From NCBI GenBank assembly GCA_944392265.1, contig CALXWC010000001.1:32237-96236 (forward strand): a stretch of DNA of 64,000 nucleotides, given 5' to 3'. Positions 1,770 through 64,000 of this stretch are shown here, piece after piece (the stretch's first letter is position 1; every line of letters begins with the position of its first letter). This DNA is from an uncultured Alphaproteobacteria bacterium (GTDB lineage Bacteria; Pseudomonadota; Alphaproteobacteria; RF32; CAG-239). The position numbers and the translations under genes are program-made. The notes beneath the pieces were generated by a model. It saw only the letters and a list, made by a program, of their open reading frames with translations. It did not search any database and was not told the DNA's origin.

Positions 1770-4232
1770 TTGACTAAAAAAAGCACCAATGTTATCAATG
1801 AGCGAGACAAAGAAAAGTTAAAGCTTTCCATTGAACATTATATCAAATATTTTATTGGCAAACGAACCAGTGAAATCAATAAAGATGAGGCTTTGGAAGC
1901 CATTGCTTTGGCCGTTAGAGAATTTGCCATGGATAAAATGTATGAGACAATGGCTCGCTACAACAAAGTCAATACAAAAAGAATCTATTATCTTTCCGTT
2001 GAATACCTCATCGGCAGATCTTTGGAAAACAACCTTCACAGCCTTGGCTTGTTTGATGTTATGAAAGAAATCAAAATTGACGGCATGCCAGATTTCAGCT
2101 TGCAAGAGATTTTTGATACTGAATATGACCCCGCTTTAGGTAACGGCGGTTTGGGTCGCTTGGCCGCTTGTTATTTGGATTCAATGGCCTCTCTTGGAAT
2201 CCCCGGATTTGGTTATGGTATTAACTATCAATTTGGTCTTTTCAAACAAAAATTTGAAAATGGATATCAAGTTGAACAAGCAGACAGCTGGCTTGGTGAA
2301 AATTCTCCTTGGCAGTTTTCTCGTCCGGACAGAACCGTCAAAATTCCTATTAAAGGTGAAGTAGAGGTGATTGATGACGGCGCCGGAAACAAAAACTTTA
2401 TCTGGATGAACACTCAAAGTATTTACGGCGTTCCGTATGACTTCCCTATTGTCGGATATAATGGTAAATCAGTTAACTATTTGAGACTTTTCTCTGCAAA
2501 AACAGACGATGAGTTGGATATTAATATCTTTAATGAAGGCGGTTATATTGATGCTGTTAAAGATAAAATTGCAACAGAAACCATTTCTAAAGTTTTGTAT
2601 CCGTCAGATGCACTTGAATCCGGTAAAAAATTGCGTTTAACCCAACAATACTTCTTTGTTTCTTGCGCTATCCAAGATATCATCCGTCGTTTTTTGGAAA
2701 AATGCGATGACTTCAAAAAGCTTCCTGATATGGTTTGTATCCAACTCAACGATACTCACCCATCCATTGCCATTGCAGAAATGATGCGCTTGCTTGTGGA
2801 TATTCATGGTCAAGAATGGGATGATGCTTGGGATATTGTTACCAGAACATTTGCTTACACAAACCATACTTTATTGCCGGAAGCTCTTGAAACATGGCCG
2901 GCTCGTATTTTCCAAGAATTATTACCTCGCCACTTGCAAATCATTTACGAAATTAACCGTCGTTTTATGAACTTTGCTCGTGAAAGATTTGGTGATAATA
3001 ATGAAAAACTAGCTAAAGTTTCTATTGTTTCTGGCGAAGGTGACCGTCAAATTATCAGAATGGCAAATCTTTCTATTGTCGGTTCATTCTCCGTTAACGG
3101 CGTAGCTCAAATTCACTCTAACTTGATTAAGACCAAACTTGTTCCTGAATTTTATGAACTTTGGCCGGAAAAATTCTGCAATGTTACAAACGGTATCACC
3201 CCTCGCCGTTGGCTCTTGCATGCCAACACCGCTTTAGCTGAATTGATTTCTTCTAAAATCGGTGAAAATTGGGTCACTCGTTTGGATGAACTCAGCAAAA
3301 TTGAAGCTTTTGCCGATGATGCAAAATTTGTAAAACAATTCTCCGACATCAAACGTGCAAACAAAGAAAAATTGGCTAAAATTATATTCAAGACTACCGG
3401 TGTTATGGTTAGTCCGGACAGCATGTTTATTGTTCATGCTAAACGTATTCATGAATATAAACGCCAATTGATGACTATTTTACAAGTTATCGGTGAATAT
3501 TTGGCTATTGTAAAAGACAACTACAAACCTACTCAGGCAAAAACCTATATTTTTGCAGGAAAGGCCGCCCCGTCTTATACATTTGCCAAACTTATCATCA
3601 AGTTGATTAACAACGTTGCAGATGTTGTTAATAATGACCCGATGGTTAAAGATATGCTTAAGGTTGTCTTTATTCCTGATTATAAAGTTTCTTTGGCTGA
3701 ATCTTTGATGCCGGCTGCTGACTTGAGTGTTCAATCTTCTACCGCCGGATTTGAAGCAAGCGGTACCGGAAATATGAAGTTTGCTTTGAACGGTGCTCTT
3801 ACAATCGGTACTTTAGACGGTGCCAATATTGAAATCAGAGATGCCGTCGGTGAAGAAAACTTCTACCTTTTCGGCCTCAAAGAAGAAGATATTCAAGCGC
3901 AAAGATCAACTTATAATCCTCGCGAAATTTATGAGAAAAACAGTTATATTAAACGCATTTTGAATGCTATTAACTCCAATATGTTTTGCGAAAAAGATTA
4001 TCTCTTGCTCTTTAAGCCTATTTTTGAAGAATTGGTCAACAGAGATTATTACTTTGTTTTGGCTGATTTACCATCCTTTGATGAAACTATCAAAAAGGCT
4101 GAAAAAGACTTTGGTGATAAAAAACTTTGGGCTAAAAAAGCCATTATTAATGTGGCCAATATGGGATATTTCACCAGTGACAGAGCTGTTGAAGAATATG
4201 CTAAAAATATTTGGCACATCAAACCATGCTAA
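1770..4232 (+). CDS. glgP: Glycogen/maltodextrin phosphorylase
   Basis: LGNGGLGRLAAC, QLNDTHP, KRIHEYKRQ and EASGTGNMKF (PLP lysine) motifs. SD AAGGAGG precedes a TTG start. Confidence 0.97.
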   Translation: MTKKSTNVINERDKEKLKLSIEHYIKYFIGKRTSEINKDEALEAIALAVREFAMDKMYETMARYNKVNTKRIYYLSVEYLIGRSLENNLHSLGLFDVMKEIKIDGMPDFSLQEIFDTEYDPALGNGGLGRLAACYLDSMASLGIPGFGYGINYQFGLFKQKFENGYQVEQADSWLGENSPWQFSRPDRTVKIPIKGEVEVIDDGAGNKNFIWMNTQSIYGVPYDFPIVGYNGKSVNYLRLFSAKTDDELDINIFNEGGYIDAVKDKIATETISKVLYPSDALESGKKLRLTQQYFFVSCAIQDIIRRFLEKCDDFKKLPDMVCIQLNDTHPSIAIAEMMRLLVDIHGQEWDDAWDIVTRTFAYTNHTLLPEALETWPARIFQELLPRHLQIIYEINRRFMNFARERFGDNNEKLAKVSIVSGEGDRQIIRMANLSIVGSFSVNGVAQIHSNLIKTKLVPEFYELWPEKFCNVTNGITPRRWLLHANTALAELISSKIGENWVTRLDELSKIEAFADDAKFVKQFSDIKRANKEKLAKIIFKTTGVMVSPDSMFIVHAKRIHEYKRQLMTILQVIGEYLAIVKDNYKPTQAKTYIFAGKAAPSYTFAKLIIKLINNVADVVNNDPMVKDMLKVVFIPDYKVSLAESLMPAADLSVQSSTAGFEASGTGNMKFALNGALTIGTLDGANIEIRDAVGEENFYLFGLKEEDIQAQRSTYNPREIYEKNSYIKRILNAINSNMFCEKDYLLLFKPIFEELVNRDYYFVLADLPSFDETIKKAEKDFGDKKLWAKKAIINVANMGYFTSDRAVEEYAKNIWHIKPC

Positions 4233-4248
4233 CTCTTTCTTAAAGGAC

Positions 4249-4283
4249 AAAAAAATCCCTCTCCAAAAGAGAGGGATTTTTTT
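4249..4283. terminator. Bidirectional intrinsic terminator
   Basis: A7-TCCCTCTC-caaaa-GAGAGGGA-T7 between convergent genes. Confidence 0.85.
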
Positions 4284-4294
4284 ATGTTTATTAA

Positions 4295-6016
4295 TTAACG
4301 GCCTTGATTTTGCATCTGTAATTGCGCTTGCATTATTGCATTTTTTTCTGCCAGATGCAAATCTCTTCCTTTGCGTAAACGATTTATCATATAGGCTTCT
4401 TGACGAGCCACATCATAATATGGGAATTTACGCAATCTCGGAACATTAAGCTTATCAAAACCTTCATTCGATACCAAGGCTTGAATAGACTGAATACTAC
4501 TTTGTACTTCTTCATACTTGCTGGCAATAATTTCTTTTTTCTCTTTTTCTGAGCCGTTTGGTCCGAGTTTTTTGAAGTCTGAACGCAACTCTGTATGAAT
4601 TTCATACAAATTCTTATTGTATAATTTCATATATTCTTGATGCAATTCTTCTTTTGACATTTTTGCATATCGCGGATCTTCCGTATATAAAGACAACAAA
4701 TCAACATAAGCCATTCCGGTTGCGAGCTCTTTGGCAACATTGGTTTTGTCTTCTTTTTTCTGAACTTGGAACGTATTAAGCGGCACATCGCTTGTATCTG
4801 TGTATACTTTGGCCATAATACTGCTCTCATAAAACTTATTAAAGTTTTTATACTTACTGTCAGCTTGTTCCAAAGCAATTTGAGTATCTAAATCTTTTAT
4901 CATATTAAAATATGGATGTGTTATTTCTTTAATGCCTTTTGCAATAAGTTCGTCTCTTAAATGAGCTCTTAATCTTTTATAATAAGCTACCCTTTTATCC
5001 AAATCGAAAACATTTTCTTTGGTAACCTTCATCATATTGGCAAAATCTTTGGGACCTAATGAAACACCGGTCGGAACAATCATTTTTTTAGCACAAGAAA
5101 CAAGGAACTTTCCTTTCATTCCTACGGGGCCGTTATAACACATGTGTGTTACTTTACATGTGGCGGCAAGAGTTAACGCCTCATCCATCATTCCATCCGT
5201 AGCATCAGCATACTTTGGTGTTAATAAGGTGACATTTAATGTAGGCTTATCATTTTTATATTCAATCTCGCCTCTTAAGCCATATTCAAAATTAGGGTTA
5301 ACTTTACCATTTTTATCTGCTTTTGGACCTTCTTTCTTTTGATCCTCATCCTTATACCACATCATTTTATAACCGTTGAAACACGGTGTTTTCTTGTAAT
5401 TTCTTGTTTTATATTTTTGGTTTAAGGAAACATGGTCATCCATATATTTAGAAATATCTTCTACACTTGGATGAACTTCTTTTGGAGATGATTTTTCTGC
5501 CTTTTCGGCTCTTTCTGCTTTAACCTTTTTTATAGAGGCAATCTTGCTTTTTAGGCTTGAATCCGAAGGTGTATGTGCATTAGACAGGTCTAAAGATATT
5601 TGCTGAGAATCTTCATTCGTACCACGACCGATAGAAACTTCATCATAATCATTTTCAGCAACATATTCTCTATGTGCTTCAATGACATTTCTTTTAAAGT
5701 CGTTGTCTTTTTCATCTTCTGGAAAGCTAAAATTGCTTAACCCTAATTGATTTAAGGTCATATAAACTTGTTTGATTTCGTCTTTTGTCATGCCAAAATG
5801 GCTAAAACGAACAACTCCGTTTTCCAATCTAAAATCTACGCCGCTCGGCAAATGAATATTATAGCCGAGTTTTCCGTCAATAGTTTGTTCTTGAGATGTA
5901 ACATTTTCTCCGGATAAACGATTTATACGGTTAGCAATCTCATCCATATTGATTTCTTGTTCTTGTCCATTTTCTGAAATTGATGAAAACAAAAGTTTAT
6001 TAGCGTTATATTCCAT
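4295..6016 (-). CDS. Hypothetical protein, 573 aa, hydrophilic
   Basis: Long ORF with SD AAGGA. No family recognised. Ends ...QAQLQMQNQGR. Confidence 0.8.
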   Translation of the reverse strand: MEYNANKLLFSSISENGQEQEINMDEIANRINRLSGENVTSQEQTIDGKLGYNIHLPSGVDFRLENGVVRFSHFGMTKDEIKQVYMTLNQLGLSNFSFPEDEKDNDFKRNVIEAHREYVAENDYDEVSIGRGTNEDSQQISLDLSNAHTPSDSSLKSKIASIKKVKAERAEKAEKSSPKEVHPSVEDISKYMDDHVSLNQKYKTRNYKKTPCFNGYKMMWYKDEDQKKEGPKADKNGKVNPNFEYGLRGEIEYKNDKPTLNVTLLTPKYADATDGMMDEALTLAATCKVTHMCYNGPVGMKGKFLVSCAKKMIVPTGVSLGPKDFANMMKVTKENVFDLDKRVAYYKRLRAHLRDELIAKGIKEITHPYFNMIKDLDTQIALEQADSKYKNFNKFYESSIMAKVYTDTSDVPLNTFQVQKKEDKTNVAKELATGMAYVDLLSLYTEDPRYAKMSKEELHQEYMKLYNKNLYEIHTELRSDFKKLGPNGSEKEKKEIIASKYEEVQSSIQSIQALVSNEGFDKLNVPRLRKFPYYDVARQEAYMINRLRKGRDLHLAEKNAIMQAQLQMQNQGR

Positions 6017-8032: not shown

Positions 8033-9055
<1,023 letters not shown>

Positions 9056-9265
9056 TTATATATTATGCGGACAGCCCCGCACTGGCTTTTATTAAAAATT
9101 ATCGTCGTTAATGTAGCATTAATTCTTTTTTTTTCAAGACAAATATTATCTTCTATTTTTTTTCCTGCAAAACTGTGTATAAAAGTTTGACTTCAATATC
9201 CGAAGACTTATTATTCTTTTTCTCTTTTTTATTATTTTTTTATTATTAACTAAAATTATCAAATT

Positions 9266-59993: not shown

Positions 59994-61079
59994 TTAATAA
60001 TCATCATCGTCTTGATTATCACCATAATCATCATTCTGATAATCATTGTCATCATTCTGATAATCATCGTGATAGTCATCATCGTGATTGTTGTTGTCGT
60101 TGTCTTCATACTCAGAATAACCAGAGAACAAGGAATAATCATCCTTGTTTTCCTCATCATCATTGCCCCAGCTACTTTGACTATTATCATCATCGTCAGC
60201 GCGATTGTCGTCGTTGTCTTCAATCTCGCCGAACAGACTGTAATAACCCCCATTATTGTCATGATCATTATCATCGTCATTTTGAGAAGCATCGTCTTCT
60301 TCTTGAGGTTCGTCATCGTTGTCCTCATTTTGAGAAGCATCGTCTTCTTCTTGAGGCTCCTCATCGTTGTCCTCATTTTGAGAATCATCATCGTCATCTT
60401 GAGGCTCGTCTTCTTGAGGCTCATTATCGTCGTCCTCATTTTGAGAAGCATCGTCTTCTTCTTGAGGCTCCTCGTCTTCTTGAGACTTAACATAGTCATC
60501 AAAAATACTTTGAAGTTCCTCTTCTCGACGACGCTCATCATCATCTTCTTCTTGAGGCTCTTCCTCGTTAACAGGCTGTTGTTCAAAGAAGTCATCCTCT
60601 GTTAAAGAATTGGAGTTATTCTCCTCTTCTCGACGACGCTCATCATCTTCTTCTTGAGGTTCTTCCTCGTTAACAGGCTGTTGTTCAAAGAAGTCATCCT
60701 CTGTTAAAGAATTGGAGTTATTCTCCTCTTCTCGACGACGCTCATCATCTTCTTCTTGAGGCTCTTCCTCGTTAACAGGCTGTTGCTCAAAGAAGTCATC
60801 CTCTGTTAAAGAATTGGAGTTATTCTCCTCTTCTCGGCGAGGTTGTTCAAAGAACACACTTTCTGGCACACCCTGATTTTCAGACTGCTTACCTATATAA
60901 TTGAATTGGTTAGCATAAGAAGATGCATTGTCATTTTCCTCTTCTTTGTTACCATATTCCTCATAGGTATAAGCGAAAGCCTCCGAGCATGGGCATATCT
61001 GCTTCCTTCTTAACGCTGCAACAAGTTCATTATGCAGCATACATCTTCTTCTGAAGATGTGGACACATTTTATCTCCAT
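59994..61079 (-). CDS. Extremely acidic, low-complexity repeat protein (D/E/N/Q-rich)
   Basis: 361-aa ORF with its own promoter (TTGCTT-N16-TATAAT at 61139-61112) and terminator. Repeats are in frame. Confidence 0.7.
   Translation of the reverse strand: MEIKCVHIFRRRCMLHNELVAALRRKQICPCSEAFAYTYEEYGNKEEENDNASSYANQFNYIGKQSENQGVPESVFFEQPRREEENNSNSLTEDDFFEQQPVNEEEPQEEDDERRREEENNSNSLTEDDFFEQQPVNEEEPQEEDDERRREEENNSNSLTEDDFFEQQPVNEEEPQEEDDDERRREEELQSIFDDYVKSQEDEEPQEEDDASQNEDDDNEPQEDEPQDDDDDSQNEDNDEEPQEEDDASQNEDNDDEPQEEDDASQNDDDNDHDNNGGYYSLFGEIEDNDDNRADDDDNSQSSWGNDDEENKDDYSLFSGYSEYEDNDNNNHDDDYHDDYQNDDNDYQNDDYGDNQDDDDY
60270..60485 (-). repeat. Degenerate ~48-bp coding repeats (EEPQEEDDASQNEDND)
   Basis: TTTTGAGAAGCATCGTCTTCTTCTTGAGG recurs at about 60280, 60328 and 60440. 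Confidence 0.8.
60520..60853 (-). repeat. Three near-identical 102-bp coding tandem repeats (34 aa)
   Basis: GTTAAAGAATTGGAGTTATTCTCC occurs at 60601, 60703 and 60805. Confidence 0.92.
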
Positions 61080-61177
61080 AATACATACAAATTTATAATT
61101 TAACGATACAAATTATACCATATTTTCATTAAAAAGCAAAGTATTAAAAAAAATTAATTTATAACATAAAAAAACTC

Positions 61178-61206
61178 TTGCATTTTAAAATAAACTTATA
61201 TATCTT
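61178..61206 (+). promoter_or_regulatory. Sigma70-type promoter for tRNA-Thr
   Basis: TTGCAT-N17-TATCTT, 12 nt upstream of the tRNA. Confidence 0.6.
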
Positions 61207-61218
61207 TGCGATGTTGTC

Positions 61219-61293
61219 GCCGCTGTAGCTCAGTGGTAGAGCACGTCATTGGTAATGACGGGGTCGCAAGTCCGATTCTTGCCAGCGGCACCA
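61219..61293 (+). tRNA. tRNA-Thr(GGT)
   Basis: Cloverleaf: GCCGCTG/CAGCGGC acceptor stem, CGTCA-TTGGTAA-TGACG anticodon arm, GCAAG-TCCGATT-CTTGC T arm and encoded CCA. Confidence 0.96.
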
Positions 61294-61508
61294 TTAAAAA
61301 AAGGCCTCCTTAATGGAGGCTTTTTTTAATGGTAATGTTGCAGGGACGGACTTACGGGGGAAACGCAAGTTCGGAGCGGATAGTTGGTGAAAACGAGTGT
61401 TGAGCTTTAGCAATTAGCTTAGCGAAACACGAAGTTTGAACCTTACGACGCGAAAGGGACCCGTTGGCTCAACGCCAATGGGAATTTACCTTCTTGCCAG
61501 CGGCACCA
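61294..61508 (+). mobile_element. Small tRNA-linked structured element ending in an 18-bp duplication of the tRNA 3' end
   Basis: TTCTTGCCAGCGGCACCA at 61276-61293 and 61491-61508. The interior is GC-rich, palindromic and non-coding. Confidence 0.65.
61295..61330 (+). terminator. tRNA terminator
   Basis: GGCCTCC-ttaat-GGAGGCT followed by a T-run. Confidence 0.85.
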
Positions 61509-61557
61509 TATAATAAAAAAAACACCGCCTTTCTTCAAGCGGTGCTCTTTTTCATAC

Positions 61558-62115
61558 TTAGGCTTTTTTTGATGCTAAAAAGGCTTCAACCTTTTGGATA
61601 TCTGCCTCTTCTTTAGCTTTTTTTTCAGCTTCAAGAATGGCATTCTGGCGCCTTATTTCGTCCTCTCTAGTGTCATCATAATCTTTCTTTATTGCCGACT
61701 TCTTGTTCCTAATTTCTTCTATGTTTTTTGCACCATAGGCTTTCAATAGTTTTGTCACTGCTGGGCTGCAACTAATATCCAGCAAAGTTTTGACCTCATA
61801 ATGAGAACGGCAACAAATCTCTAGCGGATAACTTCGCAATTCTCTCACCCAAACCTGAACTCGTGTATTTGGATCCAGACCTTTTTCAAGAAGCTCTATC
61901 ATCTTACCAATATCTGCATTTTTACATGCTTCTATCAATTCTTTCTTTTCCCGATTTTGGGCTTCAGCCTCTGCTTTTGCTTTTTGTCTCTCGACCTCTT
62001 TTTTCTGTCTTTCGACTTCTTTTCGGGTTCTATATTTTTTCCAATAGAAAAACAAATAGACTAGTAAGCTACTTACCAGAACACACACTACAAAAATAAT
62101 TAAAAATTTTTCCAT
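61558..62115 (-). CDS. Membrane-anchored coiled-coil/ankyrin-like protein, paralog 1
   Basis: TM segment, KEVERQK repeats, LIEACKNADIGKMIELLEKGLDPN and TLLD..VTKLLKAYGAK. Confidence 0.75.
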   Translation of the reverse strand: MEKFLIIFVVCVLVSSLLVYLFFYWKKYRTRKEVERQKKEVERQKAKAEAEAQNREKKELIEACKNADIGKMIELLEKGLDPNTRVQVWVRELRSYPLEICCRSHYEVKTLLDISCSPAVTKLLKAYGAKNIEEIRNKKSAIKKDYDDTREDEIRRQNAILEAEKKAKEEADIQKVEAFLASKKA

Positions 62116-62209
62116 GACTTTTTATTTTAATTGTAAAAATAATATTTTTTATAAAGAAGATGTATCATATTTTGGATAAGAGTGCAACACAAAATTTAGA
62201 CAAAAATTT

Positions 62210-62280
62210 TCAATTTTCCTACTCAAAAGCTTAAAATCATCATAAAAATTAGTCCGATAATTGCACAGTATCGCACACCA
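62210..62280. repeat. Conserved boundary module, copy A (att-like)
   Basis: TCAATTTTCCTACTCAAAAGCTTAAAATCATCATAAAAATTAGTCCGATAATTGCACAGTATCGCACACCA. Confidence 0.7.
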
Positions 62281-62328
62281 TATAATAAAAAAGCACCGCC
62301 TTTCTTCAAGCGGTGCTCTTTTTCATAC

Positions 62329-62871
62329 TTAGGCTTTTTTTGATGCTAAAAAGGCTTCAACCTTTTGCATATCTGCCTCTTCTTTAGCTTTTTTTTCAGC
62401 TTCAAGAATGGCATCCTGGCGCCTTATTTCGGCTACTTCTGCATCATGACGAGCTTTCTCTATTGCGGCCTCTTCTTCCCTAATTGCCTTAATAGTTTTA
62501 GCTCCATAGGATCTCAAGAGCTTTCTCAATGCCGGACCCGAACTAATGTCCAGCAAAGTTCTGGTTTCATAATGAGAACAGTCACAATACTCTGGAGGAC
62601 TACTCCAACACTCATTCACCCAAACCTGAACCGTTATGTTAGGATCAAGACCTTTTTCAAGGAGCTCAATTACCTTGTCGATATCTGCATTTTTACATGC
62701 TTCTATCAATTCTTTCTTTTCCCGACTTCTGGCTCTTGCTTTCTGTCTTTCAACTTCTGCTTTCTGTCTTTCGACTTCTTTTCTGGCGCTGTCTTTTTTC
62801 AAATAGAAAAACAAATACACTAGCAGACCTATAGCCAGAACACACACAGCAAAAATAAATTTTTTTTCCAT
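62329..62871 (-). CDS. Membrane-anchored coiled-coil/ankyrin-like protein, paralog 2
   Basis: Same architecture as paralog 1; identical C-terminus QKVEAFLASKKA. Confidence 0.75.
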   Translation of the reverse strand: MEKKFIFAVCVLAIGLLVYLFFYLKKDSARKEVERQKAEVERQKARARSREKKELIEACKNADIDKVIELLEKGLDPNITVQVWVNECWSSPPEYCDCSHYETRTLLDISSGPALRKLLRSYGAKTIKAIREEEAAIEKARHDAEVAEIRRQDAILEAEKKAKEEADMQKVEAFLASKKA

Positions 62872-62971
62872 AGTTTTTTTATTTTAATTGAATAATAATA
62901 TTTTTTATAAAGAACATGTATCATATTTTGAACAAAAGTGCAACACAAAATTTAGACAAAATTATATTTTT

Positions 62972-63042
62972 TCAATTTTTCTTCTTATTTTATCAAACCC
63001 ATCATAGTTTTTAGTCCGATAATTGCTCAATAAAAGTGCACC
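62972..63042. repeat. Conserved boundary module, copy B
   Basis: ...CATCATAGTTTTTAGTCCGATAATTGCTCAATAAAAGTGCACC. Confidence 0.7.
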
Positions 63043-63260
63043 TTTTTGATATATCCGCATTAATAGTGGATTTATTAAAATGTGTAAAAAATTAGCCCTT
63101 CATGAATTCAATCAATCTGGGCTAAATTTTGAACTTTACCTACTTTCTTACCCTTAAGAGATATTGGTATAATCCATTTATCCTTATACTTCGATAATAT
63201 AAGATTTCTATACCTCTTTTCAGACGTCACTAAGTAAATTACCTATATTTAGACAGCATA

Positions 63261-63743
63261 TCATCGAAGCCATTTATCCAGCATTTCTTTACGCTTTTTA
63301 GTTTCTATGATATTGTTTTTTTCTATTTCTCTCTTGTCATTATTTATAGCACTCACGGTATCCTTCCTTGCTCGTTCTAAAAAAGGCTTTATAGGATTAT
63401 TGTCTAAAATTTTATCAAAAAGCGTTTCTTTCTTCATAGCTTCTTCAAAATTTCGAGCTCCCTTGCTACCGCCGCTACCTCCTGCCATCCACTCATAACT
63501 TCCGACTTTTATACTAGGCAACGTAATTTCATGAGAAAGAATAAACTTGCGTACAGCAGCTTTCATGGTAACTAAGTAATCTTCGTTTTGACAATATGCC
63601 CCATGACAACCTTCTTTGACTTGCCATCCCATAGATATTGTCAAACTCACACCTTTTTCGGTCTTATATTTTACTTCGGCCCCATCTACGCGCCCATATT
63701 TATCCTTCGTTAGTTTTATTTTAGAGTTATTATTTTCAGCCAT
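63261..63743 (-). CDS. Hypothetical protein, ~160 aa
   Basis: SD GGAGG precedes ATG 63743. Unrelated to the two ankyrin-like paralogs. Confidence 0.7.
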   Translation of the reverse strand: MAENNNSKIKLTKDKYGRVDGAEVKYKTEKGVSLTISMGWQVKEGCHGAYCQNEDYLVTMKAAVRKFILSHEITLPSIKVGSYEWMAGGSGGSKGARNFEEAMKKETLFDKILDNNPIKPFLERARKDTVSAINNDKREIEKNNIIETKKRKEMLDKWLR

Positions 63744-63918
63744 GTCAACCTCCATAATTTATTTTGTATTTTATAACAAATTTATAAAAAAATCAATTTA
63801 TAAAAAATTGTCAAAGTGGGTATTATATTTTTTAAGTAATTGTATTTTTAATAAAAAAGCAGTCCCTGCATACCTGGACAGAAAGATAAATTATTTTTTT
63901 ACTAATATAACAAATACC

Positions 63919-63997
63919 TCAATTTTCCGCTCAAAAGCTTAAAGTCATCATAGTTTTTAGCCCGATAATTGCACAGGTAAAGTGCATTATATCACCA
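63919..63997. repeat. Conserved boundary module, copy C
   Basis: TCAATTTTCCGCTCAAAAGCTTAAAGTCATCATAGTTTTTAGCCCGATAATTGCACAGGTAAAGTGCATTATATCACCA. Confidence 0.7.
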
Positions 63998-64000
63998 CGA

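Follow-up and report, generated by a model that had tools for sequence, protein, structure and literature searches.

An array of three small single-gene units lies downstream of the gene for tRNA-Thr(GGT) in a 64,000-nucleotide stretch of DNA from an uncultured alphaproteobacterium (the whole stretch, hereafter "the window", is contig C1, positions 32237-96236, of an assembly of 1.45 Mb in 40 contigs that is 81.75% complete). The units, of 772, 762 and ~946 bp, each hold one minus-strand gene and are each closed by a related module of ~74 bp, an arrangement that an original prediction, made from the letters of the sequence, had described and whose coordinates and repeats we confirm. From comparisons with metagenome-assembled genomes (MAGs) of related gut Alphaproteobacteria, we conclude that the module is very probably the scar of one arm (the P arm, at the attR junction) of a family of elements that carry a large serine recombinase (LSR), target the 3' end of tRNA-Thr(GGT) and have their own attachment site, attP, within the LSR gene itself.

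The module as a probable remnant of the end of a recombinase gene

In the genome of origin the module is confined to this locus. A repeat search recovers a single repeat family with copies at 62207-62270, 62969-63032 and 63915-63978, and the three full modules, A, B and C, are identical to one another at 52 (A-B), 57 (A-C) and 53 (B-C) of 74 positions. A profile of the three copies, run against the 1.45-Mb genome, finds only these three (E 4.6e-22 to 5.9e-18; the next hit has an E of 0.7), and the 8-mer AGTCCGAT that they contain or resemble shows no enrichment in the same genome (16 found, 32 expected). On contig C15, weak profile hits and a copy of AGTCCGAT stand 0.4-0.5 kb apart in an apparent open coding frame, and were taken as chance. 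With three copies in the genome, all of them at this tRNA, the module is not the genome-wide promoter or operator that the original prediction had set against its own reading.

A 2.9-kb stretch was searched for in 40 relatives, 24 of them other genomes of the same family and 16 from outside it; the module region was matched in at least 17 of the 24 and, among the matches listed, in none of the 16. Twenty relative loci picked from those similarity hits, and for that reason a biased sample, were then searched with the profile, which found 33 further modules in 17 of the loci, with one to four per locus. In the 16 loci that contain a tRNA, each of the 30 modules is on the tRNA's strand and downstream of the tRNA: 28 belong to tRNA-Thr(GGT) and two to tRNA-Leu(TAA), whose 3' end is similar to that of tRNA-Thr(GGT). 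When the modules are aligned, AGTCCGAT is followed at 22 nt by a CCA-like core, and in most cases then by a T-rich stretch and a hairpin. Module C and the modules of relatives flank unrelated genes on either strand. As a correction to the original prediction, genes 1 and 2 are paralogues with 70% identity across 180 aa (E 1.5e-75), and gene 3 alone is unrelated to the others.

The antisense strand of the module is an open frame and bears a coding signature: across 32 distinct copies and 28 codons, its entropy by codon position is 0.89/0.65/1.03. Five codons overlap AGTCCGAT, and these hardly vary at any of their three positions, a sign that the DNA itself is constrained. What this strand encodes is the last ~30 residues of an LSR. 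At one locus (L023, from genome G016) the module tail is the C-terminus of a truncated LSR gene, a pseudogene, and ~11 kb nearer the tRNA there is an intact LSR gene of 514 aa whose 3' end overlaps that of the tRNA; the protein that it encodes matches the families Resolvase (5.6e-15), Recombinase (3.4e-12) and Zn_ribbon_recom (3.7e-8). An LSR gene of this composition (resolvase, recombinase and zinc ribbon) is found within the element in relatives, and tRNA-Thr(GGT) abuts the LSR 3' end at each of the 14 loci with close LSRs. In the window itself, the antisense of module A retains a remnant of the LSR tail (~62149-62280), which reads WCAILCNYRTNFYDDFKLLSRKIE....

On the domain matches in relatives, the recombinase is a large serine recombinase and not the tyrosine integrase that the original prediction had proposed. 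Nor is it encoded just past the end of the window, one of the places suggested for it, since contig C1 has no match to the serine and tyrosine recombinase families PF07508, PF00239 and PF00589, for which the assembly was searched; PF00589 has hits on contigs C5 and C27 only. A partial resolvase at the end of contig C39 was considered as well, and has no significant match to this LSR.

Set against this coding role is the alternative that the module serves as a promoter or operator of the minus-strand genes, or that it belongs to a local duplication of genes in tandem. Units 1 and 2 are indeed duplicated in tandem, and in both of them weak promoter-like hexamers (each 9/12) occupy corresponding places between module and gene, at 62168-62139 and 62924-62895. 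The module nevertheless has only three copies in the genome, its copy C and the copies of relatives have unrelated genes on either strand for neighbours, and its antisense is coding and forms the end of an LSR gene. A scan was uninformative both for promoter-like sites, which show no clear enrichment (16, where shuffled sequences gave 9.8 +/- 3.8), and for terminator-like sites (3, where they gave 2.5 +/- 1.5). We regard a regulatory or duplication origin of the module as extremely improbable.

Four types of junction can be told apart by the sequences that meet at them: tRNA joined to LSR body is read as attL, tail joined to other sequence as attR (the module), tail joined to LSR body as attP-like, and tRNA joined to terminator as attB. 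After de-duplication there are 24 distinct LSR-to-tRNA junctions and three LSR-to-tail junctions (L081, L082 and L094), and the LSR/tail junction falls ~30 codons ahead of the stop. The only sequence common to all four junction types is GCACCATT, 8 bp in length, and the crossover must therefore fall within it; by analogy with the 52-bp site that is described below, the central dinucleotide is most likely the CA within GCACCATT.

Insertion is precise, as is evident where an empty and an occupied site can be compared within one genus. The sequences of G001 (L015, 9383-14687) and G010 (L016, -5 to 5299) are 97.5% identical over 5308 bp, and they become collinear 5 nt ahead of the tRNA end in G010 and 5-6 nt ahead of the first module core in G001; what comes after the tRNA in the former comes after the module in the latter. 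This places a 9.39-kb LSR element in G001 exactly between the tRNA end and the module core. The same element carries a head-morphogenesis-like gene (3734-4513; phrog_3517, 5e-52) and a weakly Rep-like (replication-initiator-like) gene (8064-9056), which together suggest a phage-satellite-like life style. At another locus (L053, G112:C3), an LSR that is 40% identical to the tRNA-Thr family likewise abuts the 3' end of a tRNA, in this case tRNA-Pro(CGG), and the gene-overlapping LSR architecture may be wider than a single clade.

The 3' end of tRNA-Thr(GGT) is the bacterial-side half-site (B arm). It contains AGTCCGAT at 61269-61276, 17 nt ahead of its CCA end as against 22 nt in the module, and AGTCCGAT and the 8-bp core are the only sequences that the modules share with the tRNA. 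For serine integrases the zinc-ribbon-domain motif has been described as set 5 bp closer to the centre of attB than to that of attP (Rutherford et al. 2013, PMC3783163, in excerpt), and on the left half-sites the spacings of 17 and 22 nt match this published shift. A AGTCCGAT displaced by 5 bp accounts for the tRNA resemblance that had been noted earlier for the module. That claim was made for the core of copy A and holds up there, with an alignment score to the tRNA 3' half that is reached by 1 of 1000 shuffles; the corresponding figures are 8/1000 for B and 174/1000 for C, such that the resemblance is real for A, weaker for B and not significant for C. A decayed copy of the whole tRNA was rejected as an explanation of the module, since the likeness is confined to ~18 nt and the remainder encodes the LSR tail. 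The inverted repeat reported for copy C is present, but its arrangement recurs in only 4 of 36 aligned copies (by eye) and is not a family-wide trait; in place of a symmetric core around a 7-bp spacer, the module consists of one half-site (the P arm) and a coding remnant of the recombinase C-terminus. The T loop of tRNA-Thr (61266-61282) reads UCCGAUU, with C in place of the usual U55, and this unusual loop is part of the motif common to the tRNA and the recombinase sites.

A tyrosine integrase is also found at this tRNA. In G007 (L032, G007:C17) an island of 7.2 kb, 0-7235 nt past the tRNA end, lies between exact 18-nt copies of the tRNA and encodes a 579-aa tyrosine integrase (PF00589, 1.5e-16), Mrr, a small resolvase and a KAP/STAND-type NTPase, which indicates that a second, classical type of element uses the same tRNA and that the tRNA serves two recombinase systems. 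In the window, an exact second 18-nt copy of the tRNA 3' end, unmentioned in the original prediction, is present at 61491-61508 and closes a 215-bp mini-element, X, that directly follows the tRNA (Table 1). Both observations favour a reading in which the modules are att sites for a tyrosine integrase whose core is the 3' half of the tRNA, but this reading is very improbable all the same. The G007 island is bounded by exact 18-nt tRNA copies and not by modules, whereas at the crossover no more than 8 bp are common to module and tRNA, and the modules adjoin an LSR gene without a break; a tyrosine element explains mini-element X, not the modules. A displaced exact copy of a tRNA end, which is a trait of classical tRNA islands, is absent for the modules and present for X and for the G007 island.

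Proposed growth of the array and exchange of cassettes

Between the tRNA and a conserved flank (a lipocalin/NlpE lipoprotein, a GDSL lipase and a 272-aa protein), the content of the locus differs in every genome of the genus examined, with breakpoints at the cores, in agreement with the variable gene content that had been predicted. The 35 module-bounded units range from 762 to 11,739 bp, and 11 of them are <1 kb. Cassettes have been shuffled between genomes: a two-gene cassette (L020, -5 to 1496; L031, 1399-2899) is 97.5% identical in different genera, and takes first place at tRNA-Thr in G008 but second place at tRNA-Leu in G018, and a His_Phos_1 cassette (L018, -5 to 798; L030, 2051-2854) is 92% identical between G023, where it is the first unit, and G004, where it is the third. 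The homology of these cassettes breaks at module cores. Other cargo in relatives includes a type IIG restriction-modification enzyme with its specificity subunit, a C5 methylase and Mrr, HNH and GIY-YIG nucleases, in addition to KAP NTPases, a helicase-nuclease, Fic/DOC, ankyrin-repeat proteins and Bro-N.

Contigs of other metagenome runs (X1-X4) permit comparisons between strains. One contig of run X2 joins window position 62236 to 63945, in the same register in modules A and C, and this close strain therefore lacks units 2 and 3; contigs of run X4 diverge 2 nt past the tRNA CCA and 1 nt past core A. The breakpoints at cores and the strain variant of run X2 bear out the prediction that the modules are att-type boundaries of units inserted site-specifically at the tRNA. 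A joint in run X3 (1591->4158) has a shorter side of only 25 letters and was not used, and parts of the locus that no contig covered in runs X2-X4 were set aside. In run X1, which is probably the source sample, a low-depth contig (4.6) joins the sequence just ahead of module B to the point where module A starts, going back 763 bp (62969 -> 62207; L003 3370/2608), and is ambiguous between a tandem variant and a circle.

Many of the relatives' units carry a further element, a 52-bp site that consists of AGTCCGAT, 36 nt and the 8-mer again in inverted orientation. For most cores it is found 55-60 nt to the right, or ~250-290 nt when mini-element X intervenes, and at +81 where it falls inside the LSR coding region; it occurs among loci L015-L032 (in L020, for example, 59-110 nt past the tRNA end) and in 26 of the 35 units, and its exact pattern is found in 69 of 121 family genomes, with none for a reversed control. 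The spacing of its arms matches the geometry of the P arm. It was rejected as the crossover site, since the breakpoints are at the cores and not at its centre and since its central dinucleotide varies. In either orientation, those 52-bp sites that lie within LSR genes fail to fit the interior profile of the cassette-type sites. From its sequence, we consider the 52-bp site to be a putative accessory binding site for the LSR.

In the mechanism that we propose, attP would lie inside the 3' end of the element's own LSR gene, with the crossover within GCACCATT. On integration, the body of the LSR would become joined, at attL, to the antisense of the tRNA end, its last ~30 codons (the tail) would be carried to the element's far end, at attR, and the tRNA would stay intact. 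As the tRNA half-site would survive each insertion, later elements could reinsert there, older ones would be pushed outward and the array would grow. Cassettes that lack an LSR may arise and travel by accretion and differential excision: an LSR element could leave with or without neighbouring units, its tRNA junction pairing with any downstream module, and any module that is used for excision could become the C-terminus of the recombinase. Accretion of this kind follows the model published for cis-mobilizable elements (PMC5704250) and for the tycheposon islands of Prochlorococcus (bioRxiv 10.1101/2020.12.28.424599), and the coding signature that LSR-less units have in their tails is in keeping with it.

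For the growth of the array, although not for the identity of the module, there is an integron-like alternative, the one nearest to the original prediction, in which every small unit is a minimal circle, non-autonomous and made up of terminator, 52-bp site, cargo and P arm, that is inserted at the tRNA and excised singly by an LSR acting in trans. The abundance of short units (11 of 35 <1 kb) and the end architecture shared by 26 of the 35 are in keeping with it, as are the identical cassettes that have different neighbours on both sides and a short post-core motif (by eye) that the left ends of cassettes share with the LSR 3' end. Such circles, however, would at no time bring the tail together with an LSR body, yet the modules of LSR-less units show the coding signature; the excision of an internal cassette would need two P-type sites to be recombined, and no circle was seen in the data, which are contigs only. 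To our knowledge, serine integrases do not recombine two P-type sites. Minimal circles are thus an unlikely, if still serious, account of how the units came to be where they are.

Several observations weigh against an LSR-element origin of the module and against growth by accretion. No homologue of this LSR was found in the assembly of origin (81.75% complete), modules B and C have degenerate cores, the 52-bp site is in none of the three window units, and the joint in run X1 that goes back 763 bp is away from the cores. No circular or excised form was seen in the contig data. The right half-sites have no recognisable zinc-ribbon-domain motif at either spacing (by eye), which is a departure from canonical sites. 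Finally, repeated insertion at an already occupied tRNA implies an attP x attL-like recombination, which canonical serine integrases, as far as the excerpted text of PMC3783163 goes, do not carry out. The array in the window appears to be a fossil of the LSR insertion process, a reading suggested by the want of an LSR and of 52-bp sites, the decayed cores of B and C and an old tandem duplication that is bounded at a core. In sum, the integron-like array of the original prediction stands as an array built by site-specific insertion at the tRNA, and its tyrosine-integrase mechanism falls away.

Features of the tRNA-Thr locus in the window

Table 1. Features of the tRNA-Thr(GGT) locus, with positions in the window
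Feature	Position	Strand	Description
tRNA-Thr(GGT)	61219-61293	+	ARAGORN; Rfam tRNA 70.9 bits
Mini-element X	61294-61508	+	215 bp: tRNA terminator hairpin, ~150 nt that are GC-richer, exact 18-nt copy of tRNA 3' end
Unit 1	61509-62280		Hairpin and T-run 61523-61552, gene 1, module A
Gene 1	61558-62115	-	185 aa; N-terminal hydrophobic segment, charged repeat region
Module A	62207-62280	+	P-arm scar (very probable); AGTCCGAT at 62251-62258, 22 nt before end of CCA-like core at 62280
Unit 2	62281-63042		Hairpin 62293-62323, gene 2, module B; tandem paralogue of unit 1
Gene 2	62329-62871	-	180 aa; paralogue of gene 1 (70% identity)
Module B	62969-63042	+	P-arm scar (very probable); AGTCCGAT at 63013-63020; core degraded to GCACC
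Unit 3	63043-c.63988		Gene 3, module C
Gene 3	63261-63755	-	164 aa; no known family
Module C	63915-63988	+	P-arm scar (very probable); AGCCCGAT at 63959-63966; adjoins conserved chromosomal flank

Together, units 1 and 2 are a tandem repeat of 771 bp with a DNA identity of 81-83%, and the boundary of the repeat is a 17-nt string that begins at the CCA-like core; unequal exchange, either site-specific or homologous, could be the source of the duplication. Module C is the oldest and most decayed scar of the three. On this contig, the chromosomal flank beyond it is the lipocalin/NlpE lipoprotein gene, which starts just past the window end, and last modules that are orthologous to module C adjoin the same flank in L030 and L027. 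Searches of Pfam, PADLOC and PHROGs with genes 1-3 gave no family above cut-off; in a protein atlas, gene 1 has a weak ankyrin-like lead and nothing more, and gene 3 has no match.

Mini-element X is most simply explained as a miniature or remnant of a classical tyrosine-integrase element, and its 150-nt body has no homology to the end of the G007 island. Counterparts of X, 190-226 bp in length, follow the tRNA or module cores in L015, L016, L021, L022 and L027. A 9-bp hairpin is present within the GC-richer part of X, and parts of X also match other contigs of relatives. An Rfam scan of 60900-64000 (E <= 1) found the tRNA alone above threshold, with the modules and the 150-nt part of X unmatched. 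Just upstream of the tRNA lies an open reading frame of 361 aa (59994-61079, minus strand) whose product is extremely acidic and has three near-identical repeats of ~35 residues each; the opposite strand is also open.

Comparison with known systems

The growth of islands at tRNA genes by successive integration is a process that is already known, and the locus has affinities to several systems. Among them are the composite islands of the staphylococcal cassette chromosome (SCC), in which the Ccr LSRs act at the 3' end of rlmH. These are alike in the insertion by an LSR at the end of a conserved gene that is kept, and in the tandem arrangement of elements, some of them recombinase-less, that are parted by repeated att junctions. 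The present locus differs from SCC in its tRNA target, in an attP within the coding end of the LSR, in the 52-bp inverted-repeat site beside most units and in the units themselves, mostly of 0.8-4 kb with one or two genes; its host is a reduced gut alphaproteobacterium.

The accretion of integrative and conjugative or mobilizable elements (ICEs and IMEs) with cis-mobilizable elements (CIMEs) is similar in that decayed elements retain att sites and tandems can co-move (PMC5704250). A CIME has lost its recombinase and transfer genes and retains both att junctions; the window units, at most candidates for this type, have a P arm on the right and a core on the left, with decayed cores in B and C and the 52-bp site missing. 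ICE/IME accretion, in the excerpted account, is mostly driven by tyrosine integrases, in contrast to the LSR here, and IMEs with site-specific serine recombinases integrate within genes and disrupt them (PMC5704250), whereas the tRNA in the present case is intact.

The tycheposon islands of Prochlorococcus also arise by insertion at a tRNA, which marks the island's proximal end and where newcomers push older elements inward and where degenerate remnants and partial att repeats accumulate, and some of them are satellite-like (bioRxiv 10.1101/2020.12.28.424599). Of 937 tycheposons, 27 carry an LSR instead of a tyrosine recombinase (same source). Their repeats are partial tRNA copies and their remnants, in the words of the excerpted text, 'lack clear boundaries', as opposed to the recombinase-tail module that serves as a boundary here and to the exact core-to-core units that it defines.

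A site within the recombinase gene itself is known from the SSV-type ('suicidal') tyrosine integrases of archaea, whose gene is split on integration (PMC8371274). Those enzymes are tyrosine recombinases that are inactivated by the split, and recombinases that split their own gene are described in the excerpted part of this 2021 review as known only from archaea. The bacterial serine recombinase of the present elements, by contrast, retains all of its Pfam domains and exchanges only its last ~30 residues. The LSR family works like the self-splitting integrases and is not a member of them, as the enzyme class differs and the body of the protein stays complete.

The canonical sites of serine integrases (A118/LI, Bxb1 and phiC31) have in common with those described here a short common core and a motif that is shifted by 5 bp (PMC3783163, in excerpt). 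They differ in that the motif is found here on left half-sites only, and in that there is also, 55-81 nt away, a complete and separate site of 52 bp whose spacing is attP-like and at which the crossover does not occur.

A search of the literature in full text, with supplements outside it, found no description of an LSR with attP in its own coding end, of a tail module or of a 52-bp site. The features that were not found in print are thus a bacterial serine recombinase that has attP in its own gene and a C-terminus that changes with the state of integration, together with sites that are recognisable on one half only and a 52-bp companion site. As LSRs are tools for genome engineering, a family that targets a tRNA, has asymmetric sites and may possess a built-in switch of directionality is of interest in that setting as well. 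The locus also shows very small genomes of gut Alphaproteobacteria gathering and exchanging defence-type genes, among them those for restriction-modification, Fic/DOC, KAP NTPase, HNH and GIY-YIG proteins, as exact cassettes of kilobase size.

Integrons hold an ordered array of small, promoter-poor cassettes beside a fixed insertion point, and their cassettes are shared between genomes. The array at tRNA-Thr differs from integrons in that there is no IntI tyrosine recombinase on contig C1 and in that the boundary is a half-site with a coding remnant; no attC hairpins were seen as cassette ends, which are LSR half-sites with the remnant of coding sequence, in an analysis that included no attC-specific model search. 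We tentatively offer, as a possibility that falls short of being probable, that the LSR family is a serine-recombinase counterpart of the integron, with the tRNA half-site as its permanent insertion point and modules that are attC-like and double as spare C-termini. Each integration or excision would then swap the last ~30 residues of the enzyme, and the swap of tails, perhaps together with the 52-bp accessory site, would set the direction of the reaction in place of a separate directionality factor, while the same reaction would pick up and drop single-gene defence cassettes.

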